A stretch of DNA of 64,000 bases from a bacterium. Lineage in GTDB: Bacteria > DRYD01. The notes under the pieces were generated by a model. That model made no database searches, had not been told where the DNA came from, and worked only from the letters and a program-made list of their open reading frames with translations. The position numbers and the translations under genes were made by a program. The stretch spans positions 111,232 through 175,231 of the forward strand of contig JAUQQQ010000002.1 of NCBI GenBank assembly GCA_030549815.1. The letters run 5' to 3'. This document shows, in pieces, positions 14,640-61,470 of the stretch. Every line of letters starts with the position of its first letter. Position 1 is the stretch's first letter.

Positions 14640-15743
14640 ATGACAAATCTACAAAGTATCATAAAAATTACAAAAATAGGCAAAGATGAAGTAAACTTCC
14701 TAATTAACGAAATAAGAAAGTTAGCTTCAGACCGTGAATACTGCATAATGGAATTTTGTGGGACTCATACACATGAGATCTCAAGGTATGGTATTAGAAG
14801 TATCCTTCCAAAAACATTAGACCTTAAATCAGGCCCAGGGTGTCCAGTATGTGTAACTGCACAAGAAGATATCGACCATATAACAAGTATAGCAGAAAAA
14901 TACGACTTAGGAATAATCACATTTGGAGATATAATTAATGTTCCTGGTAGTAAAGGTAGCTTAAGCTACCTTAGAGCAAAGGGTAAAGAAGTAAAAGTAG
15001 TATATAATCCATTAGAATCTATCAAAATAGCTCAACAAAATCCAACTAAAAATTATGTTTTAATTGGAATAGGTTTTGAAACAACTGTCCCTGGATTGGC
15101 ATTCACTATAAAGAAAATTATTCAAAACAATATAAAAAATCTTTTTTATTTTTCTTTACATAAATTAACTCCTCCTGCAATGAAAGCACTCCTCGATCAA
15201 GGGGAAATTAAATTAGATGGTATAATCGGACCAGGACATGTATCCACTGTAATAGGAATAAAAAAATGGCAAGAGTTTATAGGAAAATATAACATACCAT
15301 TCGTTATAATGGGATTCGAACCAGAAGACATAATATACGGCATATACATCCTCTTGAAAAAAATAAAAAATAAAGAATATGGAGTTTTCAACACTTATTT
15401 TAGGAGTGTAAGTTTTGAAGGTAATATCTTGGCACAAAAAATCGTAGATGAAGTATTTGAAATATCAGATGCAAATTGGAGAGGATTTGGAATACTACCC
15501 AACAGCGGGTTAGAACTAAAAAAGGAATACCAACATATAGATGCAAAAAAAATATTCAAACTTGATGAACCTATAAAAGTAAAAAAAACTGGCTGTAGAT
15601 GCGGGGAAGTTTTAAGAGGAGTTATAAAACCATTTGAATGTCCTCTATTTAAAGTTGCTTGTAGTCCATCAAATCCAAAAGGTCCCTGCATGGTATCATC
15701 CGAAGGAACATGCTCAGCATATTATTTGTACGAGATAGAATAA
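14640..15743 (+). CDS. hypD: [NiFe]-hydrogenase maturation factor HypD
   Basis: FCGTHTHE, GPGCPVCV and FETT motifs. 367 aa. Confidence 0.9.
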   Translation: MTNLQSIIKITKIGKDEVNFLINEIRKLASDREYCIMEFCGTHTHEISRYGIRSILPKTLDLKSGPGCPVCVTAQEDIDHITSIAEKYDLGIITFGDIINVPGSKGSLSYLRAKGKEVKVVYNPLESIKIAQQNPTKNYVLIGIGFETTVPGLAFTIKKIIQNNIKNLFYFSLHKLTPPAMKALLDQGEIKLDGIIGPGHVSTVIGIKKWQEFIGKYNIPFVIMGFEPEDIIYGIYILLKKIKNKEYGVFNTYFRSVSFEGNILAQKIVDEVFEISDANWRGFGILPNSGLELKKEYQHIDAKKIFKLDEPIKVKKTGCRCGEVLRGVIKPFECPLFKVACSPSNPKGPCMVSSEGTCSAYYLYEIE

Positions 15744-19389: not shown

Positions 19390-20658
19390 TTATTTCTTCT
19401 CTTGATTACCTTCAGGTATAGGTACATTTTGTGGATTTTGTTGCTGCAAACTTTGTTGCTGTGGATTTTGTTGTTGGCTATATTGAGCATATGTCATGTT
19501 GAACTGTGGATTAAATTGTTGTTGTCCTTGATATGGATTATACGGTTGTTGAAAATAAGGTGGTTGTTGGAAATTTGGTTGGTAAGGTTGTTGAGGATAA
19601 GATTGCTGAGTATAAGGTTGCTGCGGATACTGTGGATACGGTTGTTGTGGATAATTTGGATAAGGTTGCTGTGGATATGAAGGGAAAGGTTGTTGTTGGT
19701 AATACGGTTGTTGATAAGGATACTGAGGGTATGGTCCAGGTCCAGGATATGGAGGTTGTTGATACATACCAAAACGTTTGAAATATTCCTCCTCAGTTAT
19801 ATACATTCCATTTAAGATATTTTGGCACTCTTGAGATTTTATCCATTCATCCAACTCTTTTACTCTATAAGGAACAAATGGATGAGTCATTTGAACCATT
19901 GCAATGTATTTATGAACAGTTTGCAAAAGATTAGTTTCATCCAATTGCCTTGCTTGCATAAGAACTTCATCAATGTTTACTTCTCCATCTGAATATTTAT
20001 GAGAATATCCTGCCAATTTAGACAAAGCTCTTAGTGCAGTATTTCTATCCTGGACAACAAGAAAACCTGCTCTATCAGCAGAGAATTCTGCCATTCTACT
20101 CCAATGTAATAAACCCAATTGCAAAGATAATGCAGCCAATTGACCAACTCCACCTAAAACAGCAGTTATTACACCTACCCCAAGGCTACCTAAAATATAA
20201 GCAATAGTCTTATTCAACATATGATCAAATTTATTGTGTCCTAATTCATGACCTATAACAAAAATTAATTCTTCTTCTGTAAGGATTTCTGTAAGGCCGC
20301 TTGTAACAACAACAAATTTTCTATCCATTCCCATTGCAAAAGCATTAGGAACCTCTGCAGTTTGAAGGAAAAATTCAGGTTCATAAGGTAAATCCAAAAT
20401 TTCTATTGCTTCTCTATAAACTTTGTAAAGCCTTGAATATTGATTAGGAGTAACTCTTAAAGCTTGCCCAGTAAAGATAACATACAGTGCTTCTTCACTA
20501 AATATCTTATTCAATATTTTAAATAACTGTGGTAGAAGTGGTATTTTCTTTAACCCCTCTGTAGCGACAGAATCAAATTTATGTTGAATAGCTTTGAGAG
20601 ATATTCCTGGAAACTTTAGTTTACCACTATCAGTCTTAGGCAAAGTAGTAGCTTGCAT
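19390..20658 (-). CDS. M48-family zinc metalloprotease (HtpX/Ste24-like) with a Q/P/Y-rich low-complexity C-terminal tail
   Basis: HELGHNKFDH (HExxH). The C-terminal ~115 aa consist of PQQPYP/YPQQPY-type repeats. Confidence 0.75.
   Translation of the reverse strand: MQATTLPKTDSGKLKFPGISLKAIQHKFDSVATEGLKKIPLLPQLFKILNKIFSEEALYVIFTGQALRVTPNQYSRLYKVYREAIEILDLPYEPEFFLQTAEVPNAFAMGMDRKFVVVTSGLTEILTEEELIFVIGHELGHNKFDHMLNKTIAYILGSLGVGVITAVLGGVGQLAALSLQLGLLHWSRMAEFSADRAGFLVVQDRNTALRALSKLAGYSHKYSDGEVNIDEVLMQARQLDETNLLQTVHKYIAMVQMTHPFVPYRVKELDEWIKSQECQNILNGMYITEEEYFKRFGMYQQPPYPGPGPYPQYPYQQPYYQQQPFPSYPQQPYPNYPQQPYPQYPQQPYTQQSYPQQPYQPNFQQPPYFQQPYNPYQGQQQFNPQFNMTYAQYSQQQNPQQQSLQQQNPQNVPIPEGNQEKK
19400..19750 (-). 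repeat. imperfect in-frame tandem repeats encoding the Q/P/Y-rich tail
   Basis: Repeated GGTTGTTG/GGATA(T/C)GG units on the plus strand generate spurious overlapping ORFs on both strands (19402-19781). Confidence 0.7.
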
Positions 20659-30233: not shown

Positions 30234-32150
30234 CTACTTTATAGAAGCGTTTAATTGTCCTAAGGCAATCCCACTATCGTTAGGTGGAATATTTTTGTGA
30301 AAATAAATCTTAAAAACTCTAAATTTTTCTAATATTGAATAGCAAAGGATTTTATTTTGGAAAACTCCTCCAGAAAATCCGACAGTATCAATCCCATAAT
30401 TATCCATTATATTTTTCGCAATTTCATACATTGCTTGTGTAATAGTATTATGGAATTTTCTTGCTAAATCATTATAATTCTCATAATCCCTTTTTTCAAG
30501 GATATACTTAAAGGTTTCCAAGAAATCAACAATCAGCATATCATTTTCTTTATTAATACTGAATGGTAGGTAAGAATTTTCGCTTGATTTCAACGCCAAA
30601 TTTTCTAATTCTATTGCTGCTTGACCAGAAAACATTATTTTTTGATTTTCTCTTATTTTTAGCAGAACAGCAGCAATATCAAAAAGCCTTCCTACCGACG
30701 ATGTATAATAAACATTCTCATCTTTTTCTATCTGCTTTATTACTATCTGTTTTTGGAAGTTATTAATTTCATTAAATAAGTTCAACTTTTGTGGTAAAAA
30801 TTTAGCAACAAAAGAAAGTGCTATAAACACAGGATTCTCGATAGCAGAGTCACCCGCAACTATAGGGATATACCTAAAATGTGCTACCCTGTATAAATTA
30901 AAAATATCCCCAACAAAAACTTCTCCCCCCCAAATTTTTCCATCTTCCCCATAACCAGTACCATCAAAAGAAAACCCTATTAACTTGTCCTTGATATTCC
31001 TGTCAATTATTAAAGAATATATATGAGCCTTATGATGTTGCACCTTCCTTAATTCAACCCCTATATTATAAGATAAATCCTCAGCAAAAGTAGTAGATAA
31101 ATAATAAGGATGTAAATCGCAAACTACCATTTTTGGATTCAAATCATATAAATCGATCAATTTATGAACCATTTTCTGATAATTATCAAAAACATGTTGG
31201 CTAACAAGATGACCTAACCTTGTAGATAAGAATATTTTATTTTCTTTAACTAAACAAATAGAACTTTCCAATTCTGGCCCTAAACAAATACTATCAAAAA
31301 ATTCATAATCCGTTTTAATAAATTTTCCAACTCTTCCAATTCCTCTCCTAATACATAAACCCAGCTCATTATAAACAATAGAAAAATCCTGAATGTTATT
31401 GATTTTTAAATTATTATAAACAATGTATTTTACTTTATCATAAAATTTTTCTAAAACTTCTTCATCATCTATATAAGGGCTTTCTGAAGAAATATTTAAA
31501 CTACTAAATACCAAGGGTTTATTAAAAAAATTAAAAATCAAAACAAAAAAAGGATCATTAGCAATCCATATTCCGAAATAATCGTTACTTGAAATCTTGG
31601 AAGAAAATTTAGAATTTAAAGCTCTGATGATTTTTATATCAAGAGAATTATCATCGATCTTTTCCTCTGTTGTAATATATTCCTTCAACATTTCAAGAGA
31701 GGAAAAAGCTATAGGTAAAGGTTTTTGAGTTCTCTTTATACTTCTTAATTTTTCAATAGCTGATTCATTAGTTGCATCACAAATTAGATAATAAATATTA
31801 GAAGTCTTTAAAGCAATAATCTCTCCTTTACTTAAGATCATAGAAATCTCTTTGAACAGCAAGTAGTAATCTTCGAAATATTGGTTGTTCAAATATATCT
31901 TTGGACCACATTTAGAACAACATATAAAACTATACTTAAATCTTCTTGATTTAACATCATCATATTCTTTTTTACATTCATCACAAATATCAAAATACAA
32001 TTCTTTTTTTGAAAATATTGAAAAAAAAGAACCGCAATTATTACAACCACTAAAAGGATAAAAATATCTCCTACTATTTGGGTCCAAAATTTCATTCCTA
32101 CATTCCTGACAAATAGGTTTATCATTGTTTTCTTTAACTATTTCAATCAT
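30234..32150 (-). CDS. hypF: carbamoyltransferase HypF lacking the N-terminal acylphosphatase domain
   Basis: Two CxxC-x18-CxxC zinc fingers at the N-terminus, a YrdC-like block and a Kae1/HypF C-terminal domain. 638 aa. Confidence 0.85.
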   Translation of the reverse strand: MIEIVKENNDKPICQECRNEILDPNSRRYFYPFSGCNNCGSFFSIFSKKELYFDICDECKKEYDDVKSRRFKYSFICCSKCGPKIYLNNQYFEDYYLLFKEISMILSKGEIIALKTSNIYYLICDATNESAIEKLRSIKRTQKPLPIAFSSLEMLKEYITTEEKIDDNSLDIKIIRALNSKFSSKISSNDYFGIWIANDPFFVLIFNFFNKPLVFSSLNISSESPYIDDEEVLEKFYDKVKYIVYNNLKINNIQDFSIVYNELGLCIRRGIGRVGKFIKTDYEFFDSICLGPELESSICLVKENKIFLSTRLGHLVSQHVFDNYQKMVHKLIDLYDLNPKMVVCDLHPYYLSTTFAEDLSYNIGVELRKVQHHKAHIYSLIIDRNIKDKLIGFSFDGTGYGEDGKIWGGEVFVGDIFNLYRVAHFRYIPIVAGDSAIENPVFIALSFVAKFLPQKLNLFNEINNFQKQIVIKQIEKDENVYYTSSVGRLFDIAAVLLKIRENQKIMFSGQAAIELENLALKSSENSYLPFSINKENDMLIVDFLETFKYILEKRDYENYNDLARKFHNTITQAMYEIAKNIMDNYGIDTVGFSGGVFQNKILCYSILEKFRVFKIYFHKNIPPNDSGIALGQLNASIK

Positions 32151-32151
32151 G

Positions 32152-34023
32152 TCAGGATACCTCCTGAAAATTTTTTGAAAATTCTCGAGGGAAATTTTTC
32201 ATTGCAGTAATCAAAGGAATAGGAGCAGCTTGTCCCAATCCACATAAACTTGCATTCATAACAGTCCTAATTATTTCATCTATTTTTCTATCTAAATTTT
32301 TACCGTTAAGGAAATCATTCAGTTTTTCAGTTAATTTAACTGTGCCAACTCTACACGGGATACATTGACCACAACTCTCATCAGCAAAAAACTGCATTAA
32401 ATCCCTTACTAACTCTGGAATACTCATGCTATTGGGAATAGCAAAAATTGCTCCTGATCCTAACATAGCCCCTTCCCTCTGTATATCCTCATATGTATAA
32501 TCCAAATCAAGAGAAGAATTTGTTAATATCCCTCCTGACGGACCACCTATTAACAATCCTTTATTAGGTTCTCTAAAACCAAATCCAATTTCCTCTATTA
32601 TTTTTCTAACTTTTATCCCATATGGAACTTCGTTAACACAAGGATTATTAACATTTCCTGTTAACGAAATCATCTTCGTTCCAATAGATTGTCCTTTACC
32701 GTATTCTTTAAACACTTCTGGTCCGTAACTAACAGCACATGCTAAAGCAGCTAATGTTTCAACGTTATTTATTAAAGTAGGTTTTCCAAAAAGTCCTTGC
32801 TGGAAAGGGAAAGGTGGTCTATTTCTGGGCATAGCCTTCTTACCCTCTATTACTTCCAACATTGCAGTTTCTTCACCTGCAATATAAGCACTTGGCGACC
32901 TTCTTATTTCTATGTCAAAATCATTACTTACAAAATTAAAAAATCCCATATCCTTTGCTTGTTTTATAACATTTTTCAACCTCTCTATAGCTTCCTTAGC
33001 TTTGTAATTAACGAAGATATATCCTTTTGTTGCCCCCACAACATAAGCAGCAATAATTATTCCTTCAATAATAATGAAAGGATTAGATTCAGCAAGGATT
33101 ACATTACAGTAAGAAGCAACTTCACCCTCTTCCAGATTAGCAACTACAAATTTTGGATTTTCTTTCTGCTGCATTACTCCTTGCAATTTTATATGCAATG
33201 GGAAAGCGGCTCCTCCCCTACCCCTTATACCTGCCTCTTTTGCAATCTCTATAATTCTTTCCTTTCCTAATTCCACCGCCTTTTTTATACCTTCAAAACC
33301 ACCAATTTTAATATAACTGTCAATATTAAAAGGATCAACAAAATCATTGTATTTCATTATAATTTTGCCTTTTCTATCAAAATTTAAGAAATTCTCTCTA
33401 TTTATAATCGTAGGATCTTGTTTAATTTTATTAAGAAAAGTTGGTGATAGCTGAAAAACTTTGTTATCAATAATTCCTACAGGAGCAAAACCACAAAATC
33501 CTAAACAACCACAGTTCTCAACATCAAATCCTGATAAATCTACATCCTTATGTAAGCAATTACCAGCAACACATCTCCTTATCTTTATCTTCCCATTAAC
33601 ATTTGAGTTAAAAGATATGTTCCTTTCTAAATTTTTTACATCCGGATTTTTAATATTAATGATATATTCCATTTTTTGATTAAGAATAAAGCGATCTTTA
33701 AATTTAACTACCGGAGCTTGAGCACATTTCTTGAAACAATAAGATCTTCTTACATCAAACCCCTGTTTTTGTAGTTCTTCATATAACTTTCGAGAACCCT
33801 TTTCTAAACAAGATATTCCAAAACACACATAAACAGCATTTTTATTTTTTATTTCTGAAAACTCTTTATAAAAAGATATAATGGCCTTTATTTCATTTTT
33901 TACAATTTCCAATTCTTTTGACAAATTTTCTATATCTTTTTCTTCTATTCTTCCTTTTTCTTCCAAAATATCAAACAGTTTTTCTATGAGCAAAGATTTT
34001 TTTATTTGGTTCTCCTTTAACAT
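32152..34023 (-). CDS. NuoE-NuoF-like fused flavoprotein (NAD(P)-linked hydrogenase/diaphorase subunit, HndC/HoxF-like)
   Basis: An N-terminal thioredoxin-like 2Fe-2S motif (CFGISC..CFKKC), then RGRGGAAFP (FMN/NADH site) and CGQCIPCRVG (N3 4Fe-4S). Confidence 0.8.
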   Translation of the reverse strand: MLKENQIKKSLLIEKLFDILEEKGRIEEKDIENLSKELEIVKNEIKAIISFYKEFSEIKNKNAVYVCFGISCLEKGSRKLYEELQKQGFDVRRSYCFKKCAQAPVVKFKDRFILNQKMEYIINIKNPDVKNLERNISFNSNVNGKIKIRRCVAGNCLHKDVDLSGFDVENCGCLGFCGFAPVGIIDNKVFQLSPTFLNKIKQDPTIINRENFLNFDRKGKIIMKYNDFVDPFNIDSYIKIGGFEGIKKAVELGKERIIEIAKEAGIRGRGGAAFPLHIKLQGVMQQKENPKFVVANLEEGEVASYCNVILAESNPFIIIEGIIIAAYVVGATKGYIFVNYKAKEAIERLKNVIKQAKDMGFFNFVSNDFDIEIRRSPSAYIAGEETAMLEVIEGKKAMPRNRPPFPFQQGLFGKPTLINNVETLAALACAVSYGPEVFKEYGKGQSIGTKMISLTGNVNNPCVNEVPYGIKVRKIIEEIGFGFREPNKGLLIGGPSGGILTNSSLDLDYTYEDIQREGAMLGSGAIFAIPNSMSIPELVRDLMQFFADESCGQCIPCRVGTVKLTEKLNDFLNGKNLDRKIDEIIRTVMNASLCGLGQAAPIPLITAMKNFPREFSKNFQEVS

Positions 34024-35021
34024 ATTCTTGGTAATATATCTCCTTTCAAACTTTCTAATATTCTTCTGGTTCCTATTCTTGTAATGAGAAAAGTTTTCGG
34101 TTTTTCAAAGCTTTTTACTTTTCCTATAACTTTAGCATTTTTTCCTAATGGATGTTGATGAAGATACTCAATTATTTGCTGGGATTGGTTTTTGGAAGCG
34201 ACGATCACAGCTTTCCCTTCATTTGCAGCATATAGTGGGTCAATCCCCAATACTTCAGAAGCACTTATAACCCATTCTTTAACCGGTATTTCCTCTTCAT
34301 AAATTTCAATCTCAACTTTATATTTTTGGTTAATTTCATTGAGAACAGTAGCAACTCCACCCCTTGTTGCATCTCTAACAAACTTTATGCCATCAAATTT
34401 ATCAAGTAAAGGTAATATAAGGTTACTCAAGTTAGCCAAGTCTGATTGAACCTCATCATCAGTTTCTACTCCTAACCTTTCAAGCATAATATAAAGTCCA
34501 TGCTCTCCTATGGATCCAGTAACAATAATAACATCCTCTGGCTCTATTTTTCTATCTTTCCATTTTCTTTGTTTATCTATTATTCCTATACCCGATGTAT
34601 TGATAAAAACTTTATCTCCTTTATTTTTTTCAACAACCTTCGTGTCTCCTGTTATTATTTTTACATTGGCTTCCTGAGCTGCCTGCGAAATAGAATTGAG
34701 TATTCTTTTTAGATCTTTCATTTCGAATCCCTCTTCAAAAATAAAAGCAAGAGAGAGAAATAGTGGTTGAGCACCAACAACACAAAGATCATTAACCGTC
34801 CCAAAAACCGCCAACTTTCCTATATCCCCATTCTTAAAAAATATCGGATTAATAACATAAGAATCAGTAGTAAAAGCCAATGTACCAGAAATTTCAAATA
34901 TCCCCGAATCTAAAAGTTCATCAAGTATAGGATTAGAAAAATATCTCAAAAAATCTTTTTCTATTAAGTTCCGCATTGATTCTCCACCACTACCATGAGC
35001 CAACAAAATTAAATCACTCAT
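34017..35021 (-). CDS. hypE: [NiFe]-hydrogenase maturation factor HypE
   Basis: N-terminal LAHGSGG and the diagnostic C-terminal PRIC. 334 aa. Confidence 0.9.
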   Translation of the reverse strand: MSDLILLAHGSGGESMRNLIEKDFLRYFSNPILDELLDSGIFEISGTLAFTTDSYVINPIFFKNGDIGKLAVFGTVNDLCVVGAQPLFLSLAFIFEEGFEMKDLKRILNSISQAAQEANVKIITGDTKVVEKNKGDKVFINTSGIGIIDKQRKWKDRKIEPEDVIIVTGSIGEHGLYIMLERLGVETDDEVQSDLANLSNLILPLLDKFDGIKFVRDATRGGVATVLNEINQKYKVEIEIYEEEIPVKEWVISASEVLGIDPLYAANEGKAVIVASKNQSQQIIEYLHQHPLGKNAKVIGKVKSFEKPKTFLITRIGTRRILESLKGDILPRIC

Positions 35022-41031: not shown

Positions 41032-42207
41032 TTAATTAGAAAAAGTTCTTACATCTAATTTCATAGATAATATTTGTTCCAAATCTTTTATTATTCTTCC
41101 TTTTCTACCTATTATATCTTTTTTATGTTTTTCACTTACCCAAATTACAGCATATTTTTGATTGATTAACTCCACTTTGAATTTCTTATTGTCAAGTATT
41201 GCTCTTACACTATCTTCAACTTTTTTTATAATCTCCTCATTATTCTTTTGTATGTTTTTGGAAACGGGTACAATTATCGTTTGTTCTCCAAAAGTGTATA
41301 TTTCATATTCCAAATTATTATCTATGAAATTCCTTACTTCAACGACGGGACGAGCCAATCCAGGGTCCGCCATACCCTCGGGAACCTTAACCAATATATT
41401 AAGTGTAAGAACTTTGGCTATCTTACCTTTATCAACGAATATAACTGTATCAATAACATTAGGTATTACTCCCAGCTCTATCCTATGTATAAATCTCTGT
41501 ATTGCAGCAAAAGGGGACGTAGAATGGACAACGCCAACCATCCCAACACCAGCTAACCTCAAATCTATATACAAATTAAAATCCTCATCGTTTCTCATTT
41601 CATCAAATATCACATAATCGGGTCTTGAAAGTAATAAGATATCATATATCTCATTAATACTTGCATAGTTTTTGGAATACTGAGTTAGATCAGCCTCTAT
41701 GTATAGATCTCTTGGAGATTCCAGAGTTTTAACTATTTTTTTGTTTTTTGAGAAGTATTCGGTAAGAGCCTGAGCAAATGTAGTCTTACCCTGTCCAGGA
41801 GCACCCGCTATTAATAAACCCTCAACTTTTGCATTTATTCTTTCCTTGAGTTTTTCAAGCGAATTTTCACCATATTCCCTGAAGCTTTCCAAATATTCAT
41901 CCAAAGATAACTTCTTTATTGGCCTGACGCAAGTTATTTCTGTTTTATCAGAAACAGGTGGAAAAACTATAACTATCCTAAACCTCTCCAACTGAACAAC
42001 TTTTGTATACTGTCTATCTATTTCGACAACAGCTTTTGGGGAACTCAATATTTCATTGATTATTTCTCTAACCTCTTCTTCAGAAAATACTTTATCCTCT
42101 CTAATTAGTTTCCAATCAGCTGGTGTGCCCTCTTTTTTTAGAATATATCTATCAGCTTTTATATGAACACTTGTCGTTAATTTATTAAAAAGTTCCTCTA
42201 ACTTCAT
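41032..42207 (-). CDS. PilT/VirB11-superfamily-like P-loop ATPase with C-terminal KH domain
   Basis: Walker A GAPGQGKTT, Walker B VIFDE, a His-box-like GVVHSTSPFAAIQRF and a C-terminal KH-like IIGRKGRIIKDLEQI. Confidence 0.5.
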   Translation of the reverse strand: MKLEELFNKLTTSVHIKADRYILKKEGTPADWKLIREDKVFSEEEVREIINEILSSPKAVVEIDRQYTKVVQLERFRIVIVFPPVSDKTEITCVRPIKKLSLDEYLESFREYGENSLEKLKERINAKVEGLLIAGAPGQGKTTFAQALTEYFSKNKKIVKTLESPRDLYIEADLTQYSKNYASINEIYDILLLSRPDYVIFDEMRNDEDFNLYIDLRLAGVGMVGVVHSTSPFAAIQRFIHRIELGVIPNVIDTVIFVDKGKIAKVLTLNILVKVPEGMADPGLARPVVEVRNFIDNNLEYEIYTFGEQTIIVPVSKNIQKNNEEIIKKVEDSVRAILDNKKFKVELINQKYAVIWVSEKHKKDIIGRKGRIIKDLEQILSMKLDVRTFSN

Positions 42208-43043
42208 AGTTCTTTTGTGCTAAACAATAAATTACATATACTTAAGAAAAAGATAATATAAGAAATTCCATATATAAAGGCGAAAAATACATACCATGGA
42301 TTTAGAGGAATACCAGTAAAAACAACAGCTTGGGTTATATTAAAATAATCAAAATATGGAAATAAAAGTTTTATAAATAAGAGGATCTTCTGTAAAATCC
42401 CCTCAGATATTGTTGATACATAAAGAACAGATAACTCACTAAAAGTGTAAAAAAGAAGAGTTAATGTTATATTAACAGGAGCAGAAACATATATTGACAA
42501 AATCATTGTAAATGCCAAAATTATCATCGATTTTATTAACTGAAGTCCTAAAGCAGCAAAGATAATAAACATTAATTTTTTGGTATAAAAATAAACAATT
42601 AAAAAAGTTTCAAAACTAAAGAGCAAAAATGCAAAAAAAAGGAAAAAAGAAGTTCCTAAAAATTTCCCAATAAAATACTGATCCCTTGATAAAGGTTTAC
42701 TGATAAAAGTATATATTATTTTTCTTTCAATTTCAAAAGCAATGTTTGACACACCTAAACTTATTGCCAAAATTAATAATAATAATCCTATAAGAGTAAG
42801 AGAGATATCATAAAAAACCCGTTCCTGGAATTTTAATCCAAAAAAGTTAAATGTTGAACTTATAGCTACAAAAACCATCCCAAGAAACAGAATAGTATGA
42901 GGTAAAAATCTTCTAAACTCGAAATCTATCGTATATTTTGCGATAGTTATTATATTCTTCAAATCCATTCTATTTATTAGTATTCTCCCGAAACTTACTA
43001 TCTTCCTGCCTATTGGAAATTTAATAGAAAACAGATATAACAA
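42204..43043 (-). CDS. polytopic membrane protein (ABC-2-like permease fold?)
   Basis: At least six hydrophobic segments. Overlaps both neighbouring genes. Confidence 0.4.
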   Translation of the reverse strand: MLYLFSIKFPIGRKIVSFGRILINRMDLKNIITIAKYTIDFEFRRFLPHTILFLGMVFVAISSTFNFFGLKFQERVFYDISLTLIGLLLLILAISLGVSNIAFEIERKIIYTFISKPLSRDQYFIGKFLGTSFFLFFAFLLFSFETFLIVYFYTKKLMFIIFAALGLQLIKSMIILAFTMILSIYVSAPVNITLTLLFYTFSELSVLYVSTISEGILQKILLFIKLLFPYFDYFNITQAVVFTGIPLNPWYVFFAFIYGISYIIFFLSICNLLFSTKEL

Positions 43044-43572
43044 CAGGCAAAGCTAAAAAAATATAATTTTTATTTGCATCAAGAAAATTGTTAATATTTA
43101 CATTATAACTATCCTCGAAGATTGTAGATCCTGCTTTGTATATGGTCGCAAAAACAAGATTATTCTTATCAACAACTTCATATTCTAATAACTTCTTTCT
43201 ACGACACATAAAAACTAAATTCCTACCTTCGAAAATATTAAAACTAAAAACAATAGGTAAAAAAGAGCCAAAAGTTTCAATTCTATACAAATCATAAAAA
43301 TTTTCTTCAAAAGGATACTTCAAATAAATTGAACTCTTAAATTGATCTTTTACTAATTTAAAAGCAACATCGTCTCCTATTAAAAAATCAAACTCAATTT
43401 TACCAATAAGCCTAAAGGTAATAACATTAAGTATCTTTGAAAAAATATCTTTCGAGGAGTTATTTTTTATTTTCAAAATCGTTTGGTTAGATAACGGATC
43501 AATGATTAAACCATCTTTATTTAAATTACTAATTTTAACTAAGAAATTTTTTCTTCCAGAAAACATCATCAA
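43021..43572 (-). CDS. hypothetical protein
   Basis: ORF whose ends overlap both neighbours (translational coupling). Confidence 0.3.
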   Translation of the reverse strand: MMMFSGRKNFLVKISNLNKDGLIIDPLSNQTILKIKNNSSKDIFSKILNVITFRLIGKIEFDFLIGDDVAFKLVKDQFKSSIYLKYPFEENFYDLYRIETFGSFLPIVFSFNIFEGRNLVFMCRRKKLLEYEVVDKNNLVFATIYKAGSTIFEDSYNVNINNFLDANKNYIFLALPVVISVFY

Positions 43573-54077: not shown

Positions 54078-54824
54078 TTATTTTTTTATACTTATTCCAG
54101 TAAGATAGAAAAGATAAGGGATAACAAGAGGTAGAGTGCAAGGAGAAAGGAAAAGAAAAATACCAGCAATAAAAGAAACAACAGCAGTAGATAAAGAAAA
54201 ATTTGTTATTTCATAATTCATCTTTTCAAGTAGATCAGTACCCAAACCTAATGATAAAAATATATTTGCTTTTGAAAAGATAATAAGTAATCCTAAAATT
54301 ATAAAAATAACTCCCATAACCCTTTCTAAAAATATAGAAACTTTTGAAAGTTTGCTTATAATATTACCAAAAATAATAACGATAAAAGACACTAATAAAA
54401 AGCTTGTCATTAATCCGGTGGTCATTATTAACAACAAAAGAATAGCAGATAATAAATTTTGCTGATTAGAAAGTAAAGATAGTAACCCTAACATTACAGG
54501 GCCTACACAAGGTGCCCATCCTGCAGTAAAACTAATACCCACAAAAATTGAACCTAAAAAAATACCTAATAACCCCCTCTTACTATCAACCTGATTAACT
54601 TTGTAATCAACAAACTTAAAATATCTACTCAAAAGTGGTATTTTTAAAACATCTAATAAAATAAGCCCAACCATGATCAAAACAATTCCACCAAGATAAG
54701 ATATAAATATTTTTACAGAGTTTATTAAAGATAATCCAATAAAAGGTAAGGAAATTAGAAAAAACATTAGTCCAAAGCCTAAGGAAAAACCTAAAGCAGC
54801 AATTAAAACTCTAATCTTATCCAT
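54078..54824 (-). CDS. ccdA: cytochrome c biogenesis / thiol-disulfide transporter CcdA (DsbD family)
   Basis: Polytopic, with the two signature Cys motifs GWAPCVGP and LSPCTLP. Confidence 0.7.
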   Translation of the reverse strand: MDKIRVLIAALGFSLGFGLMFFLISLPFIGLSLINSVKIFISYLGGIVLIMVGLILLDVLKIPLLSRYFKFVDYKVNQVDSKRGLLGIFLGSIFVGISFTAGWAPCVGPVMLGLLSLLSNQQNLLSAILLLLIMTTGLMTSFLLVSFIVIIFGNIISKLSKVSIFLERVMGVIFIILGLLIIFSKANIFLSLGLGTDLLEKMNYEITNFSLSTAVVSFIAGIFLFLSPCTLPLVIPYLFYLTGISIKK

Positions 54825-56892
54825 CCTTCTTAATATCCTTTCCTTCTAGAAAATCAAGACTAAGCTTTATAAAAATTACTCCTTTTCTTAAATTAATCTC
54901 TGGATCAAAATTAAAACGAAGAGGATAAGTATCAAAATAAACTATAATGATACCTTTAAATACATCTTTATTTGTAATAAATATCTTTTCAGGAAGCTTT
55001 TCCAGTAATTCTTGAAGATCTTCATTATTAATTACATTTTTTTCAATGAAAATGTGGGAGGCAAAAATTCTGTTATTCGAATACTCACTTTTAAAAACAA
55101 AAATCCTTTCATACATTTCTTTATTTGTAATTATTGCATAATTATTATACGAATTTAGAAATAAAAAGAGAGAATTTTCACTCTTAATACTAATTTTAAC
55201 AAAGTGAATAGAATTGGAATATATTTTTTCGACAAATAGTATCCTATCGATTTTCACATTGCTCAAATTAGTTTCTTTTTGCACACTTAAATTTTCAAGA
55301 AATATAAATTTTTCTTTACCCTTGTAATCGATTTTGTTAAACTTTAAAAAAATTTTACTGTCATTTTCTGGAATACTTATTAAAGACTCAACTGGACTAA
55401 TGAAAACTTTATTGTTATCAATTAATAGGTAATTATTATTGACATTAAAAAATTTGTTATTAAAATCTTCTATTTTAATAGTAGGTTTTTCATTATTTTC
55501 TCCAAATGGTTCCATTATGCTAATAATTCTATCTATATTTTTTATGAATTTAGTGAAAAAGTAGGGGGACAATTCTAAATCAACATTTTGTTTATATTTT
55601 AAATTAACTGAGTTTTGAATTTTCTTTCTAAATTCGTCAAAGTTTTTTACACTTATTTCCAATCCTGCTGCTTTTTTATGCCCTCCAAATTTAATAACCA
55701 GTTCCTTGTAGTTTGATATAACATCAGTAATATCGAGCCCATCTATTGGATTTCTTATGGATCCCTTTAATACATCTCCCCTTTTTACAAGAATAAAAGT
55801 TGGTTTTTTATAATGATTAGATATTTTTCCTGCAACTATCCCAACGACACCAAGTTCTAATCCATTTTCCTCTTCAATATAATCCGGAATTATAATACTA
55901 TTGTTATAAAACTCTTTTTCTTGAATATTCTTTATAATTTTATCCAAAATTTTTTTTTGTATTTGTTGCCTTCTAATATTAATATTCTCTATTTCTTGCA
56001 ATTCAGTTTCTATATCTTCCTCTTCATTAGTATATGATTGTTTTATTGTTTTGTATATCAATTTAAAAGATATAAGAGGATCATCTATTCTTCCAGGAGC
56101 ATTTAAGCGTGGAATGATAATGTATGAAAAATGAAATGAATTAGATGGAATTGTTTCTTTTCCATATGCTTTACTAAACATTCTAAAAATAGGGTAAGGA
56201 ATGTATTGACTTCTAAGTAACCCGAACATTTTTTTCACTATTTTTCTATTATCTTCAAGTAAAGGAACAACGTCCGCAATAGTTGCCATTCCCGCTAAAA
56301 AAGTAAAAACCTTTTCCAAAGTTTCATTATTTTTTATCCAATTAAGTAAAAATAGAGACAGCTTATAGACCAAACCAGAAGCACATAAATATCCATATCC
56401 AATATCAAAAAAATGAGGATGCACTATTATATCAGCCTTAGGAACATGATGATCAGGTTTATGATGATCAATAACGATTATTTTTAAACCTTCTTTTTTT
56501 AAGCATTCTATTTCATTATAAGAAGATATACCATTATCAACTGTTATAATAGTATCAATCTTTCCTCTATACTGATTGATTATAAACTCAACTGTATTCT
56601 TATTTAATCCATAACCGTGGCGAAACCTATTAGGTATAAAAACATTTATTTTCTTCTCATTTCCAAATAATTGTTTTAAGACAAAAAAAAGCATAGAAGT
56701 AGAAACTACTCCATCTACATCATAATCCCCTACTATCAAAATTGAATTACTTTTTTTTACAAGATTCAAAAAACTATAGAAATATGGTATTTTTATATCT
56801 TGTGTATAGTGTTGATTTATATACTTTTCTATTTCTTCTTCTGTAAAGTTACGATTTTTGAGAATGTGTTTTAAAAAAATGGAATCCCACAT
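54817..56892 (-). CDS. recJ: single-stranded-DNA-specific exonuclease RecJ
   Basis: DHH motifs GDYDVDGV, TVDNG and IVIDHH, and DHHA1 GGHKKAAG. 691 aa. Confidence 0.85.
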   Translation of the reverse strand: MWDSIFLKHILKNRNFTEEEIEKYINQHYTQDIKIPYFYSFLNLVKKSNSILIVGDYDVDGVVSTSMLFFVLKQLFGNEKKINVFIPNRFRHGYGLNKNTVEFIINQYRGKIDTIITVDNGISSYNEIECLKKEGLKIIVIDHHKPDHHVPKADIIVHPHFFDIGYGYLCASGLVYKLSLFLLNWIKNNETLEKVFTFLAGMATIADVVPLLEDNRKIVKKMFGLLRSQYIPYPIFRMFSKAYGKETIPSNSFHFSYIIIPRLNAPGRIDDPLISFKLIYKTIKQSYTNEEEDIETELQEIENINIRRQQIQKKILDKIIKNIQEKEFYNNSIIIPDYIEEENGLELGVVGIVAGKISNHYKKPTFILVKRGDVLKGSIRNPIDGLDITDVISNYKELVIKFGGHKKAAGLEISVKNFDEFRKKIQNSVNLKYKQNVDLELSPYFFTKFIKNIDRIISIMEPFGENNEKPTIKIEDFNNKFFNVNNNYLLIDNNKVFISPVESLISIPENDSKIFLKFNKIDYKGKEKFIFLENLSVQKETNLSNVKIDRILFVEKIYSNSIHFVKISIKSENSLFLFLNSYNNYAIITNKEMYERIFVFKSEYSNNRIFASHIFIEKNVINNEDLQELLEKLPEKIFITNKDVFKGIIIVYFDTYPLRFNFDPEINLRKGVIFIKLSLDFLEGKDIKKDG

Positions 56893-57972
56893 TTATTTTC
56901 TTTTAGATGAAGCGGAGATTAACCTTTCTAATTCTTCAGGATTGAATGCTGCTGCAAGAGCGTATTCCAAAGATATTAATCCTTGCAAATACAGGTCTCT
57001 GAGGCTTTGGTCGAAAGATATCATTCCATCCTCTGCTCCTGATTGGATTGCGTTTGGTAGCATATGCGTTTTCCCTTCTCTTATTAAATGTCTTACTGCA
57101 GGTGTGCCCGTCATGATTTCCAAAGCCAATACTCTTCCAGAGCCAGTTGCTTTGGGGATCAAATTCTGAAAGATTACACCTTCTAATATCATTGATAACT
57201 GTACTCTAACTTGATTTTGTTGGTGGGGAGGAAAAATATCGATAATTCTATCTACCGCATTGGCACAACCTGTGGTATGTAATGTTCCCAAAACCAAGTG
57301 TCCCGTTTCTGCTGCAGTAATTGCAGTTTGTGTAGTTTCAAAATCTCTTAGCTCACCGACCAGAATAACATCAGGATCCTGTCGCAAAGCCGATTTAAGG
57401 GCATTTGCAAAACTATGAGTATCCGAACCAAGCTCCCTTTGGGAAATAATAGCTAATTTATCCTTGTGTAAAAACTCTATAGGATCCTCAATAGTTATAA
57501 TATGGCACTTCCTGTTAGAATTAATATGATCTATCATTGCGGCCAATGTTGTTGATTTTCCTGATCCTGTTGGTCCTGTAACTAAGACTAATCCCCTTGG
57601 CCTTAATGCCAAATATTTAAATATATCAGGTAATTCAAGTTCATCTATGGAAAAAGGTCTTGATGGAATTATTCTTACTGCCAAGGCCCAAGAATTTCTC
57701 TGAAAATAAGCATTACATCTAAACCTGGCTAATCCTGGGACAGAATAAGCAAAATCCAACTCTCTTTCAGCAACAAGCTTTGCCTTTTGTTGCTCTGTAA
57801 TCATACTTTCTATTATTTTTCTTATTGCATTAGGCGGAAGCACTTGTGGAATAGCAGGTTCTAATTCTCCATCTATTCTCAACATTGGAGGAGAGCCAGC
57901 TTTTAAATGTAAATCACTGGCATTTTTCTCTACCATCATTTTTAACAAAACATCTATTGGATTTTCTTGCAT
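56893..57972 (-). CDS. pilT: type IV pilus retraction ATPase PilT
   Basis: N-terminal ASDLHLKAGSPPMLRIDGEL, Walker A GPTGSGKST and a His box. 359 aa. Confidence 0.85.
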   Translation of the reverse strand: MQENPIDVLLKMMVEKNASDLHLKAGSPPMLRIDGELEPAIPQVLPPNAIRKIIESMITEQQKAKLVAERELDFAYSVPGLARFRCNAYFQRNSWALAVRIIPSRPFSIDELELPDIFKYLALRPRGLVLVTGPTGSGKSTTLAAMIDHINSNRKCHIITIEDPIEFLHKDKLAIISQRELGSDTHSFANALKSALRQDPDVILVGELRDFETTQTAITAAETGHLVLGTLHTTGCANAVDRIIDIFPPHQQNQVRVQLSMILEGVIFQNLIPKATGSGRVLALEIMTGTPAVRHLIREGKTHMLPNAIQSGAEDGMISFDQSLRDLYLQGLISLEYALAAAFNPEELERLISASSKRK

Positions 57973-58004
57973 ACTACCTCACCCTCCTTTTAATTAATTA
58001 TCAA

Positions 58005-59966
58005 TTAACTAATTATCAATAAATTAGATCCTGAACAAAGTAAATGAATTTTGTTATTATAATAAGCAATTGCAAAAATATTATCGAAAGTGTTTAATCT
58101 AATTTCTTGATAATTATCAAAGTTATCAGTTTTATAGAATCCCCCACTATTTGAACAAATATAATAACTGCCATTTACAAAATCGATATCATTAACTTCT
58201 AAATAAGATTTAGGTAAATTGTATTTAACTATTTTTTGATTATCAAATTTTGCCAATAAACCAGATCCTAAAATAAATAAATCATTACCCAACACCTTTA
58301 CTTTTTTGATTTGCTGATAAGAACCCGTTTGATATTCTTGCAATTTTTCAAATTTCTCATTAAATATTAAAATACTGCTACTACCTCCTATTATTTTTCC
58401 ATCAAAAACTTCTAAAAAATTAATATTAATACTTTTCTCTTCCACTACTTTTCCTTCCTGTAGGGTATATAATCTTCCGCTACTTAAGGCAAAAATTTGG
58501 TTATTATAAATAATAAAGTCTAAAATATCGCTGTATCCTATTTTGTAAAAATTAACAACGTTAAAATCCTGGTCTATTATTAACATACTACCTGATGAAC
58601 CACTCAAGTATATTTTATCATCTATTTTTTTAACTTTTTTTATCCTGAAATTCAATTCCTTAATTTTTATTTCTTGAAAAGAATATGTTGGTAAGTTACT
58701 TACAAGAAGATAGATTTTGTTTTCTGAAAAAACAATAAATTTATCATTCAATGTTAAATAGAATAGGAGGTTTTCAAAGGAGGGAAGTCGTATTTTTTCT
58801 ATATTGAATGTATTTTCAAGCTTAGTTGATGGTTGTTGTATAGGTTGGTATTCAGATTTTTGTTCAACTTTTTGTTCAATTTTTTGTTCAATTTTTGATT
58901 CAACTTTTGGTTCAACGTTTGATTCATCTTTTGATTCATCTCTTCGTTCAATTCTTGGTTCAACTTTTGGTTCCATTTTTGGTTCTATTTTTTGCTTTAT
59001 TCTTTGTTCTGCTTTTTGTTCAGATGATTTAGCAATCTCGGATGATTTATTTATATTTGTTAATTCGAAAGAGCTTATTTCTTTTTCTTTCTCTTGTTGG
59101 AATTCTATTTCCACAGCAATTCTATCCTTTAAGCTATTAGATCTTATATCAATGAATTTTATGATATTTTGAATGTGTGTTTGTAAGTCTTCAATTTGTT
59201 TTTGATTACCATACTTTTGGTACATATTTCTTATTTCTTGGTTAATTAATCCTAATTCATTAAGTTCTTCTGCAAAAATTTGCTTATTCATTAATTTTTT
59301 TAGTTCAAGGATATTTTTAGATTTTATTGCATCTTCAATTTGTTTTACTTTATATACTACTTGATCTTTTACTTTTTGTATTCTTTGAGCTAAGTTTTTT
59401 ACATCATTTAAAAATTGATATTTAGTATCTGAATCTTGTTTAGTAGATGGTTCTTCGAAGGAGGTTGTTGATTCTGCTGACATCAATGGTTGCCTTTCTT
59501 GGTTAGTTTGTTGAGTTTGAGAAGAAAACTGTAAAGGGTTAAGGGAATAAAGTTTTATTAATTCTAATTCACCTGAATCGAGGAATATACCGCAACCATT
59601 AGAACATATATCAACCCAAATATTACTGTCTTTTGAATAATTAACAAGCGTCAATTGTTTTTGACAGATGGGGCAAATTCTCTTTCCACTACCTTTAACA
59701 CTTTGTTTGGTCTTTGAGGGAAAGTATTTTGATATGTCTTTCAAATCAATTTCTAAAGCTTTAACCAATTCTCCTCTGTCAAACCATAAAGATTCACATT
59801 CCTGGCAAAAATCAAGTTCAAGATAATTATTTCCATAATTTCCCAAAATTTTGATTGATATTTTCTTCATCACGGAATAGCAATTTGGACATTTTAAATT
59901 GGGAGGTCTTTTATATCCTGTTATTCCTAAATCTTTTAAAATATCATTAAATAAGTCTTTAAACAT
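58005..59966 (-). CDS. novel protein: two TFIIB-type zinc ribbons + coiled coil + (K-I/V-E-P/Q)n repeat tract + C-terminal propeller-like repeats
   Basis: CPNCYSV..FCQECESLWFDRGEL and CPICQKQL..CSNGCGIFLDSGEL match the zf-TFIIB-like (PF13453-type) pattern. The tract KIEPKMEPKVEPRIERRDESKDESNVEPKVESKIEQKIEQKVEQK follows. The C-terminus has recurring ..KIYLxxSxG.. and ..NQIFALSSG.. blades. 653 aa. Confidence 0.5.
   Translation of the reverse strand: MFKDLFNDILKDLGITGYKRPPNLKCPNCYSVMKKISIKILGNYGNNYLELDFCQECESLWFDRGELVKALEIDLKDISKYFPSKTKQSVKGSGKRICPICQKQLTLVNYSKDSNIWVDICSNGCGIFLDSGELELIKLYSLNPLQFSSQTQQTNQERQPLMSAESTTSFEEPSTKQDSDTKYQFLNDVKNLAQRIQKVKDQVVYKVKQIEDAIKSKNILELKKLMNKQIFAEELNELGLINQEIRNMYQKYGNQKQIEDLQTHIQNIIKFIDIRSNSLKDRIAVEIEFQQEKEKEISSFELTNINKSSEIAKSSEQKAEQRIKQKIEPKMEPKVEPRIERRDESKDESNVEPKVESKIEQKIEQKVEQKSEYQPIQQPSTKLENTFNIEKIRLPSFENLLFYLTLNDKFIVFSENKIYLLVSNLPTYSFQEIKIKELNFRIKKVKKIDDKIYLSGSSGSMLIIDQDFNVVNFYKIGYSDILDFIIYNNQIFALSSGRLYTLQEGKVVEEKSININFLEVFDGKIIGGSSSILIFNEKFEKLQEYQTGSYQQIKKVKVLGNDLFILGSGLLAKFDNQKIVKYNLPKSYLEVNDIDFVNGSYYICSNSGGFYKTDNFDNYQEIRLNTFDNIFAIAYYNNKIHLLCSGSNLLIIS
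58856..59020 (-). repeat. 12-nt in-frame minisatellite (~13 units) inside the 58005-59966 gene
   Basis: Plus-strand units of the form GTTCAAnTTTTT / GATTCATCTTTT / GGTTCAACTTTT, each encoding a 4-aa K-x-E-x period. Confidence 0.7.
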
Positions 59967-60096
59967 TCCTTTATCTCCTTAAAAAATTTGCATTTCCTAT
60001 TTAAATTTTTCTCATAAAAAAAGAAAAAACCTGCAAAGGTTAATTTACTGAACAAGGATATGATAATTTAGTGTGGAATTATAAAAATAAGATGGT

Positions 60097-61470
60097 ATGA
60101 AAGTTTTTTATAGTTTTGGTACAGATGGAATAAGAGAGAAATATCCATTTTTAAACGATCTTGTAGCATACATAGTTGGAAAAAGCTTTGCCAAAATTGT
60201 TGATAAAAAGGAGAAAGTTGTAATCGGGTTTGATACAAGATTTAACAGCTACTCAATGTCATTGGCACTATCTTCCGCATTGGTTAGCAGTGGCTTCAAA
60301 GTTGAACTTTCTTCTAATCCCATATCTACTCCAGCCTTAGCTTTTATAACAAAACATAGAAAATGCTTTGGATTTCAAATTACAGCATCCCACAACCCCT
60401 ATTACTATAATGGTATAAAAATACTACACAAAGGTTTAAAAATAAATGACAGTTTAGAAAAAAAAATAGAAAATGAATTAAATAATTACTTTGAGTTATT
60501 ACATCAAGATTTTTCTAATTACTTACAGCTTTTTAAAGATAATATTAATTCACACAACAATTTTAAAATTTCTAACTTTGCAAATATTTACATAAAACAC
60601 CTCTTGCTTTTTGCAAAAAAGAAAATATTCTTTGAAAAAAAACCACCAGAATTGTTGGTTATAATAGATTTAGCTAATGGAGCATTATCAACATACGCTT
60701 TAACCATTTTTAAACAATTAACTAAAAATGTAAAAGTCATAAACAATAAACCAAACGGTTTTAACATCAATGATAACTGTGGAGCAACGAACATAGAAAC
60801 ATTTAAAAAGACTTTTCAAACATTATCGAAAAATTATCAAAAAGCTATAGGATTTACCTTTGATGGGGATGGAGATAGAGTGTTATGTACATACAAAGAA
60901 AACAAGAATTTATTCGTTTTAGATGGAGATGTTATTTTATTAATAATTTCCAAATTTTTAAAAAATTTCTATCCTATAAATACGGTGGCTTTAACCCATA
61001 TGAGTTCGTTAGGAATAGAGAAAGCGTTTGTCAGTCAAGGGATTAATGTATTAAGGACAGAAGTCGGGGATAAATATTTAACAAAAGCAATACTGGAAGG
61101 TAAAGCTCAATTAGGAGCAGAACAATCAGGACATATAGTTATTCCTCCTTTCCTCTATACAGGAGATGGCATTTTATCTTCCCTGTTTTTACTTTCTGCT
61201 TTAAATTATACTAATGTTGATAACATAATACAATCTATCGAAAAATTTGAACAAAAATTAATAAACGTGAAAGTTTTAAATAAAAAAGAATTCATTGAAA
61301 AAAATAAAAGCTTATTTGAAAAAATACAAAAACAATATCCAAATAGCAGGATCTTTGTAAGACCATCTGGCACAGAAGATGTTGTTAGAATACTAATAGA
61401 ATCGAAAGAAAAACAAAAAATAGAGGAAATTGAGGAAATAATAAACAAAGAGGTGGTTATAAATGTTTGA
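60097..61470 (+). CDS. glmM: phosphoglucosamine mutase (GlmM-like phosphohexomutase)
   Basis: FGTDGIRE, ITASHNPYYYNGIK (phospho-Ser loop) and FDGDGDRV (Mg site). Confidence 0.75.
   Translation: MKVFYSFGTDGIREKYPFLNDLVAYIVGKSFAKIVDKKEKVVIGFDTRFNSYSMSLALSSALVSSGFKVELSSNPISTPALAFITKHRKCFGFQITASHNPYYYNGIKILHKGLKINDSLEKKIENELNNYFELLHQDFSNYLQLFKDNINSHNNFKISNFANIYIKHLLLFAKKKIFFEKKPPELLVIIDLANGALSTYALTIFKQLTKNVKVINNKPNGFNINDNCGATNIETFKKTFQTLSKNYQKAIGFTFDGDGDRVLCTYKENKNLFVLDGDVILLIISKFLKNFYPINTVALTHMSSLGIEKAFVSQGINVLRTEVGDKYLTKAILEGKAQLGAEQSGHIVIPPFLYTGDGILSSLFLLSALNYTNVDNIIQSIEKFEQKLINVKVLNKKEFIEKNKSLFEKIQKQYPNSRIFVRPSGTEDVVRILIESKEKQKIEEIEEIINKEVVINV

Follow-up and report, generated by a model that had tools for sequence, protein, structure and literature searches.

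A tandem zinc-ribbon and beta-propeller protein encoded next to pilT in Calescibacterium-like genomes

The subject of this study is an open reading frame (ORF) on the minus strand of a 64,000-nucleotide stretch of bacterial DNA, hereafter the window (GCA_030549815.1, contig JAUQQQ010000002.1, positions 111,232 to 175,231). The ORF, at 58005-59966, and its protein are both called X here. X starts with ATG behind a good Shine-Dalgarno sequence, and lies directly upstream of pilT, the gene of the type IV pilus retraction ATPase (Table 1). From the N-terminus onward, X consists of an amphipathic helix, a pair of zinc ribbons, a region of helices, a disordered spacer bearing a tandem repeat, and a seven-bladed propeller. 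No signal peptide was found, as an earlier reading of the DNA letters alone (the sequence-only reading) had stated, and no transmembrane segment either; the highest Kyte-Doolittle mean over 19 residues is 1.25, inside the propeller, and a secreted or surface protein is ruled out. A role in anti-phage defence is likewise rejected (PADLOC, 0 families). The antisense ORF at 58804-59172 (plus strand) is dismissed as a mechanically listed frame, lying wholly within X, opposite the repeat and low-complexity region. Judged from its sequence, X is a real, uncharacterised cytoplasmic protein.

The two TFIIB-type zinc ribbons that the sequence-only reading had proposed are confirmed by Pfam, where PF13453 (Zn_ribbon_TFIIB) matches X in two stretches with 42.2 bits (gathering score 22, E=5.1e-11). 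Both ribbons show the ligand pattern of this family, four Cys followed by the G-x-W/F-x-D-x-GEL helix start, and are predicted zinc sites; Cys 26, 29, 54, 57, 98, 101, 121 and 125 are invariant in 22 aligned homologues. The claim that both ribbons have the form CPxC..CxxC holds for ribbon 1 and fails at the second knuckle of ribbon 2, which is C-x3-C in X (C121-SNG-C125) and C-x-C in a more distant subgroup. In two distant members, P0030 and P0031, ribbon 1 carries CPVD. By its profile score and ligand pattern, X is a member of PF13453. Its sole relative in the PDB by sequence is 8yoz_A, an 82-residue "transcription factor zinc-finger domain-containing protein" that aligns to ribbon 1 (E=0.015; E=6e-6 against P0030). 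In the AlphaFold2 model of X, which was built on a 22-sequence alignment, two small ribbons appear with one helix after each. A separate model of the N-terminal 150 residues had a predicted local distance difference test score (pLDDT) of 65, and a Foldseek search with it against the PDB gave no match at E <= 0.001. In the amphipathic helix, M1, F2, K3, D8 and I9 are nearly invariant, and the hydrophobic moment of 0.65 is at the 99th percentile within the protein. This helix is also present in P0030 and P0031, and is absent from double-ribbon proteins that stand alone. The literature search returned no paper on PF13453, zf-TFIIB or 8YOZ, and nothing relevant on PilT combined with a zinc ribbon or beta-propeller, or on bacterial TFIIB zinc ribbons.

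The coiled-coil stretch that had been noticed after the ribbons is borne out as a helical segment, with AlphaFold2 helices at residues 176-216, 219-227, 232-252 and 256-321. The propeller-like C-terminus is likewise supported: the model has 28 strands with pLDDT of about 90, and the predicted structure shows the seven four-stranded blades and the likeness to solved propellers that characterize a seven-bladed propeller fold. Only generic fold neighbours were found, however; the domain is 6-16% identical to every solved propeller, and its family-specific GYSDI and LPKSYxExNDI motifs match no described family; WD40-like scaffolds and the bacterial Ycf48/BNR-type and DUF6242 propellers are the closest known counterparts. 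X stays below the gathering score of every Pfam propeller family, and assignment to WD40_like (PF17005) is ruled out (28.2 bits against a gathering score of 40, residues 406-498 only). Ycf48/BNR (PF14870) gives no Pfam match on X; the X-family profile reaches PSII_BNR proteins weakly (E of about 1e-5 to 1e-6), and Asp-box-like motifs are visible in P0030 and degenerate in X. By these comparisons X probably belongs to no described propeller family, and any link to Ycf48/BNR would be remote. No characterised family absorbs the protein as a whole in the database searches, and the Cys pattern does align with PF13453; the combination of domains, which the sequence-only reading had not recognised, appears to be new as far as the databases and searchable literature covered here show, while its parts are known modules.

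Homologues of X are few. A search of 5.8 billion protein clusters revealed 24 full-length relatives with 32-51% identity and one 99%-identical cluster; where named, they are "zf-TFIIB domain-containing protein" of Candidatus Calescibacterium or of unclassified metagenome-assembled genomes (MAGs). A propeller-only profile run against 1.84 billion representatives matched four proteins below 1e-30, together with P0030 and P0031, which are distant members of the same architecture; its remaining matches were weak, to Ycf48/BNR, DUF6242 or WD40 propellers. In a set of 185,579 species genomes (one genome per species), full-length X occurs in eight, and all eight are Calescibacterium-like MAGs. A search with the N-terminal 145 residues scored ten candidates and found one protein, a frameshift fragment of a group-B orthologue (groups defined below). 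On this distribution, the X family occurs almost exclusively in the hot-spring phylum Calescibacteriota. Calescibacterium is a deep-branching hyperthermophile of Yellowstone streamer communities. The window has a G+C content of 29%, and its Ffh is 83-89% identical to the Ffh of X-bearing MAGs, which identifies its source as a relative of Calescibacterium.

A total of 17 full-length X loci from genomes and metagenomes were examined, and pilT lies directly downstream of X on the same strand in every one of them. In the 16 intact loci, 16-72 nt separate the two genes; the remaining locus comes from a frameshifted assembly. No terminator-like site was found in 56700-60300. The PilT of the window scores 479.6 bits against TIGR01420 (cutoff 319.1), and its translation contains GPTGSGKS (Walker A) and AVRHLIRE; an AIRNLIRE-like helix is a criterion for PilT-type ATPases. 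By these marks the downstream gene encodes a genuine PilT. Two groups of loci can be told apart by their surroundings. In group A, which includes the window, phosphoglucomutase (PGM) and Ffh genes stand on one side, and recJ and a gene for a 248-residue membrane protein on the other; in the window, the gene upstream of X encodes a phosphoglucosamine/phosphoglucomutase and is divergently transcribed. In group B, a pilin-like N_methyl gene, a gene for an 810-843-residue protein without a family, and HtrA stand upstream, and icd and lepA downstream. X-pilT is the sole part common to both groups. The X proteins of groups A and B are 32-35% identical to each other, and adjoining genes evolve at very unequal rates: PilT is 87-96% identical where X is 32-51% and RecJ about 50% identical.

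Table 1. Features of gene X and its neighbours. Coordinates are those of the window; residues are those of X. The last two columns give identity to the window protein in group A and group B.
Feature	Residues	Position	Strand	Basis or remark	Group A	Group B
Gene X, whole	653 in all	58005-59966	-	ORF; ~24 full-length homologue clusters; AlphaFold2 model		
Amphipathic helix (MFKDLFNDILKDLG)	1-14	59925-59966	-	Helix 2-12 in both structure models		
Zinc ribbon 1 (CPNC...CQEC-ESLWFDRGEL + helix)	24-70	59757-59897	-	PF13453; 8yoz_A alignment; invariant Cys	61%	46%
Inter-ribbon segment (LEIDLKDISKYFPS...SVKGSGKR)	71-95	59682-59756	-	Many invariant columns; identity above that of ribbon 1	79%	68%
Zinc ribbon 2 (CPIC...C-SNG-C-GIFLDSGELELIKLYS)	96-141	59544-59681	-	Best PF13453 stretch, residues 97-137; most conserved part of X	85%	76%
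Disordered linker 1	142-175	59442-59543	-	pLDDT <50; AlphaFold2 disorder at residues 138-178	under 20%	under 20%
Helical region	176-300	59067-59441	-	AlphaFold2 pLDDT 75-88	40%	28%
Charged low-complexity disordered spacer	301-384	58815-59066	-	pLDDT <50; E 17, K 14, net charge -1		
12-nt in-frame tandem array, ~12-14 units		58851-59022	-	Tandem Repeats Finder; encodes E-(P/Q/S)-(K/R)-(I/V/M)		
Seven-bladed beta-propeller	385-653	58008-58814	-	Invariant GSSG, GYSDI, LPKSY-E-NDI motifs	52%	32%
X-pilT spacer, 32 nt		57973-58004	-	Strong Shine-Dalgarno (AAAGGAGGGTGAGG); without terminator		
pilT, retraction ATPase, 359 residues		56893-57972	-	TIGR01420, PF00437; conserved downstream partner of X		
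recJ-like gene, 691 residues		54817-56892	-	TIGR00644 314.9 bits, below cutoff 396.9; DHH/DHHA1 domains		
248-residue membrane protein ("ccdA" of the sequence-only reading)		54078-54824	-	No Pfam DsbD/CcdA, no NCBIfam match		

These features point, tentatively, to X being a soluble adaptor or scaffold in the cytoplasm, acting together with PilT and co-transcribed with pilT; this is the reading that we prefer, at somewhat less than even confidence. The absence of a terminator between the two genes, the strong Shine-Dalgarno sequence of pilT itself, and the cytoplasmic nature of X are consistent with it. In this arrangement, the N-terminal unit (amphipathic helix, two ribbons, and inter-ribbon segment) would be the docking end, since conservation is highest there, a pattern in keeping with contact to a highly conserved partner such as PilT. 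The equally conserved partner that it engages would be either PilT or the side of the pilus machine or membrane that faces the cytoplasm. The helical region may form a rigid or oligomerising stalk, and the charged disordered spacer may act as a flexible tether that gains and loses length through replication slippage. The propeller might then serve as a second protein-binding platform, holding a further partner (a positional landmark, regulator or substrate). By physical contact with PilT, X would thereby control where or when PilT acts, with a possible effect on retraction.

There are precedents for soluble multi-domain proteins that set where and when a pilus ATPase works, namely FimX-PilZ-PilB in Pseudomonas and Xanthomonas, and MglA, SgmX, FrzS and SopA in Myxococcus; the motor on which these known regulators act is PilB, which drives extension (PMC5595344, PMC8389850, PMC11580455). 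Accessory factors that steer type IV pilus motors have mostly been described for PilB. X has no sequence or domain relationship to these regulators; as a soluble protein of several domains with a genetic tie to a pilus ATPase, it resembles them by putative functional analogy only, and its tie is to the retraction motor PilT, not to the extension motor. No PilZ, FimX-type GGDEF/EAL, MshEN, SgmX-type TPR or FrzS receiver domain was detected in X (Pfam and NCBIfam, E up to 1), and it would be unusual for PilT to have a partner of its own. In ZitP of Caulobacter and GltJ of Myxococcus, proteins that organise pili or gliding machinery, an N-terminal cytoplasmic zinc ribbon serves for protein docking. 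This is a lead only: those ribbons belong to a different family (MJ0042-type) in membrane-anchored proteins, whereas X has PF13453 ribbons and no transmembrane segment.

Several observations weigh against the adaptor reading. PilT is too invariant for covariation analysis of an X-PilT contact, and two genes may stay neighbours within one phylum through inherited synteny, with no functional link. P0031, a distant member, comes after dnaJ with no pilT in its vicinity, and the contig of P0030 is too short to tell; the PilT link may therefore not extend beyond Calescibacteriota. The P0031 locus (L008:6690-9791, GCA_053996615.1) encodes two ribbons, a low-complexity linker and a propeller; dnaJ precedes the gene by 12 nt, and a CLC channel gene follows it. 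Adjacent pilT was found in none of 76 other double-ribbon loci, and the literature search found no link of PF13453 proteins to pili. The sequence-only reading had suggested a survey for co-occurrence with pilT and type IV pilus genes. The first part stands in all full-length loci and the second does not hold in the window: among the 44 larger ORFs of the window that were scanned, which are mostly housekeeping genes, no pilus gene cluster was found, and no other type IV pilus gene is recognisable in the window apart from a weak T2SSE-like ATPase. Group-B genomes present a different setting, as X-pilT lies about 1-5 kb downstream of a pilin-like cluster (L001:2678-6620, L004:2538-6659, L019:2563-6434) consisting of genes for a 170-194-residue protein without a family, a PF07963 pilin-like protein and the 810-843-residue protein, followed by the HtrA-type protease. 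The 810-843-residue protein could be a PilY1-like tip factor candidate.

The tandem ribbon is not restricted to X. A metagenome scan revealed the tandem ribbon unit on its own in hundreds of loci, and the best 76 loci outside the family (L024-L099) were examined for size and neighbours. Nearly all of the 76 encode proteins of 125-160 residues without the N-terminal helix, and these stand-alone double ribbons are 26-39% identical to residues 24-137 of X. Of the 41 loci that span 5 kb of sequence or more, 26-31 have LemA (PF04011) and then an M48/HtpX-like peptidase gene (PF01435) after the ribbon gene on its strand; the distance to LemA is mostly 2-90 nt (for example, L064:5004-6026 and L051:1146-3366). 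The literature search, which included LemA with M48 and zinc ribbon, found no description of this three-gene module. The stand-alone proteins and the single-ribbon 8YOZ have the same CPxC...CxxC-G-x-W-x-D-x-GEL ribbon and helix as X. The former also have the tandem arrangement and are likewise the first gene of an operon, but lack the N-terminal helix, helical stalk, spacer and propeller of X; their conserved partners are LemA and the M48 peptidase, whereas X is followed by pilT and then, in the window, by recJ. By gene order, the tandem ribbon is thus a recurrent leading gene of operons predicted to encode membrane-associated machines. This favours a protein adaptor over the nucleic-acid binder implied by the JGI label of the homologues.

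A bolder form of the adaptor proposal joins these observations. X may be a dedicated PilT docking adaptor, in which the ribbons clamp the PilT hexamer or pilus base and are connected through the variable-length tether to the propeller, which would bind a positional or regulatory partner, and the tandem zf-TFIIB unit may be an unrecognised "operon-leading" module that couples soluble factors to membrane-associated machines, PilT in this case and LemA-M48 peptidase in many other bacteria. We regard this form as doubtful. X gives the widespread bacterial PF13453 ribbons a first contextual clue to their function, and the same clue bears on the long-unexplained LemA family. If the proposal is true, it would offer a new handle on the positioning or gating of retraction, from a deep-branching, hyperthermophilic, uncultured phylum. 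Its practical impact is limited at present, and the organisms are uncultured.

The same operons suggest a different role, in which X is an adaptor for proteostasis or envelope quality control, with ribbons that dock a protease or chaperone and a propeller that captures substrates; the proximity to pilT would then be incidental. Stand-alone double zf-TFIIB genes head conserved operons with LemA and HtpX-like M48 peptidases, in group B an HtrA-type Trypsin_2-PDZ protease gene precedes X by 49-92 nt on the same strand, and P0031 adjoins a chaperone gene, as described above. However, the protease or chaperone neighbour varies by group and is missing in group A, including the window, whereas pilT is the sole neighbour kept in every full-length locus. 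Moreover, no LemA was recognised among the scanned window ORFs of at least 150 residues, and the window's sole M48 peptidase is 38 kb off. This role is considered unlikely.

Slightly less likely still is that X is a general scaffold or positional landmark unrelated to PilT, and that the pair is synteny inherited within one phylum. The family is confined to closely related MAGs whose PilT proteins are about 90% identical, so that shared ancestry could explain the adjacency, and the generic fold neighbours of the propeller fit such a scaffold as well. Yet all other flanking genes are reshuffled between groups A and B, while X-pilT is kept with short gaps, and the divergence of X between the groups indicates ample time for the pair to separate. 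The retention of X-pilT in two differing contexts argues against mere inherited synteny.

Binding of nucleic acids appears improbable, although JGI names the homologues "Zn-finger nucleic acid-binding protein". On that account X would be a DNA-uptake or DNA-processing factor whose ribbons bind DNA and which cooperates with PilT retraction and RecJ in transformation. PilT-driven retraction and RecJ act in transformation and recombination in other bacteria, and the group-A gene order X-pilT-recJ is in line with such a role. The JGI label, however, was assigned automatically in COG style, recJ no longer adjoins the pair in group B, and the homologous stand-alone ribbons go with membrane protease operons rather than DNA genes. 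In addition, no DNA-binding family matched X in Pfam or NCBIfam.

The disordered spacer carries an in-frame 12-nt minisatellite, which the sequence-only reading had recognised and expected to vary in length between isolates. Tandem Repeats Finder reported period 12 with 11.8-12 copies at 58851-58994/59022 (about 80% matches, score 83-151), and 14 units of E-(P/Q/S)-(K/R)-(I/V/M) are discernible by eye at residues 316-371. The expected variation does occur, in copy number and length only: a 99%-identical strain has exactly one additional 12-nt unit at the DNA level, and the seven members of a 90%-identity cluster (97-100% identical) have three array length alleles, which are 0, +1 and -3 units relative to the window and are all in frame. 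Orthologues contain unrelated 9-, 12- or 18-nt arrays at the same position; the near-identical group-B loci L004 and L015 are one 9-nt unit apart, and the spacer ranges from 27 to 105 residues across the family. Linker 1 is also variable, with 14-20% identity in the family and a 3-residue indel between strains. The simplest reading is that the repeat is a slippage-prone, tolerant, flexible tether and not a phase switch, given a unit divisible by three, a cytoplasmic protein and a segment predicted to be disordered. On/off phase variation through the repeat is ruled out: gain or loss of 12-nt units leaves the reading frame unchanged, and none of the alleles observed departs from it. A contingency locus for adaptive phase or antigenic variation is highly improbable: although the copy-number polymorphism between close strains, here three alleles in seven sequences and the one-unit difference between L004 and L015, is one of its marks, the other, a unit not divisible by three, is absent, a cytoplasmic X is not under immune or phage-receptor selection, and a disordered spacer of so variable a length with unrelated repeats in orthologues has the hallmarks of a tolerant linker. 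The repeat illustrates cleanly, in a natural setting, how slippage makes a disordered tether drift in length, and could serve as a strain marker in studies of hot-spring populations.

Further genes follow pilT on the minus strand of the window. The sequence-only reading had placed X at the head of a string with pilT, recJ and ccdA; the first two names stand, the second as RecJ-like, and the ccdA label finds no match in Pfam or NCBIfam. The RecJ-like gene starts 1 nt after the pilT stop and overlaps the next gene by 8 nt, and its protein has a C-terminal extension of about 200 residues past the model. The gene of the 248-residue membrane protein recurs after recJ in group-A genomes, with 51-69% identity in its product. 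The protein contains two Pro-Cys motifs, in mid-protein (APCVGP) and at the extreme C-terminus (SPCTLP), an order that looks permuted relative to typical CcdA.

The rest of the window contains other genes of interest. About 15 kb from pilT, the minus-strand ORF 41032-42207 encodes a 391-residue protein with a weak T2SSE match (PF00437, 32.8 bits), which may be a divergent secretion or pilus-type ATPase; upstream of it are ORF 42204-43043, which has no family, and then ORF 43021-43572. The M48 peptidase gene of the window (19390-20658, minus strand) encodes 422 residues with a Gln/Pro/Tyr-rich C-terminal tail of degenerate YPQQP-type repeats (residues ~300-410); it has no adjoining LemA gene, and its product is weakly similar (31% over 121 residues) to the LemA-linked M48 peptidases. 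Hydrogenase maturation genes are scattered: hypD at 14640-15743 (plus strand), hypF at 30234-32150 (minus strand), and a hypE-like, AIR-synthase-related gene at 34017-35021 (minus strand). A NuoF-like flavoprotein gene (32152-34023) adjoins these maturation genes. Near the start of the window, at 845-2833 on the plus strand, a 662-residue protein has a Ser/Thr protein kinase domain fused to a large array of tetratricopeptide repeats.

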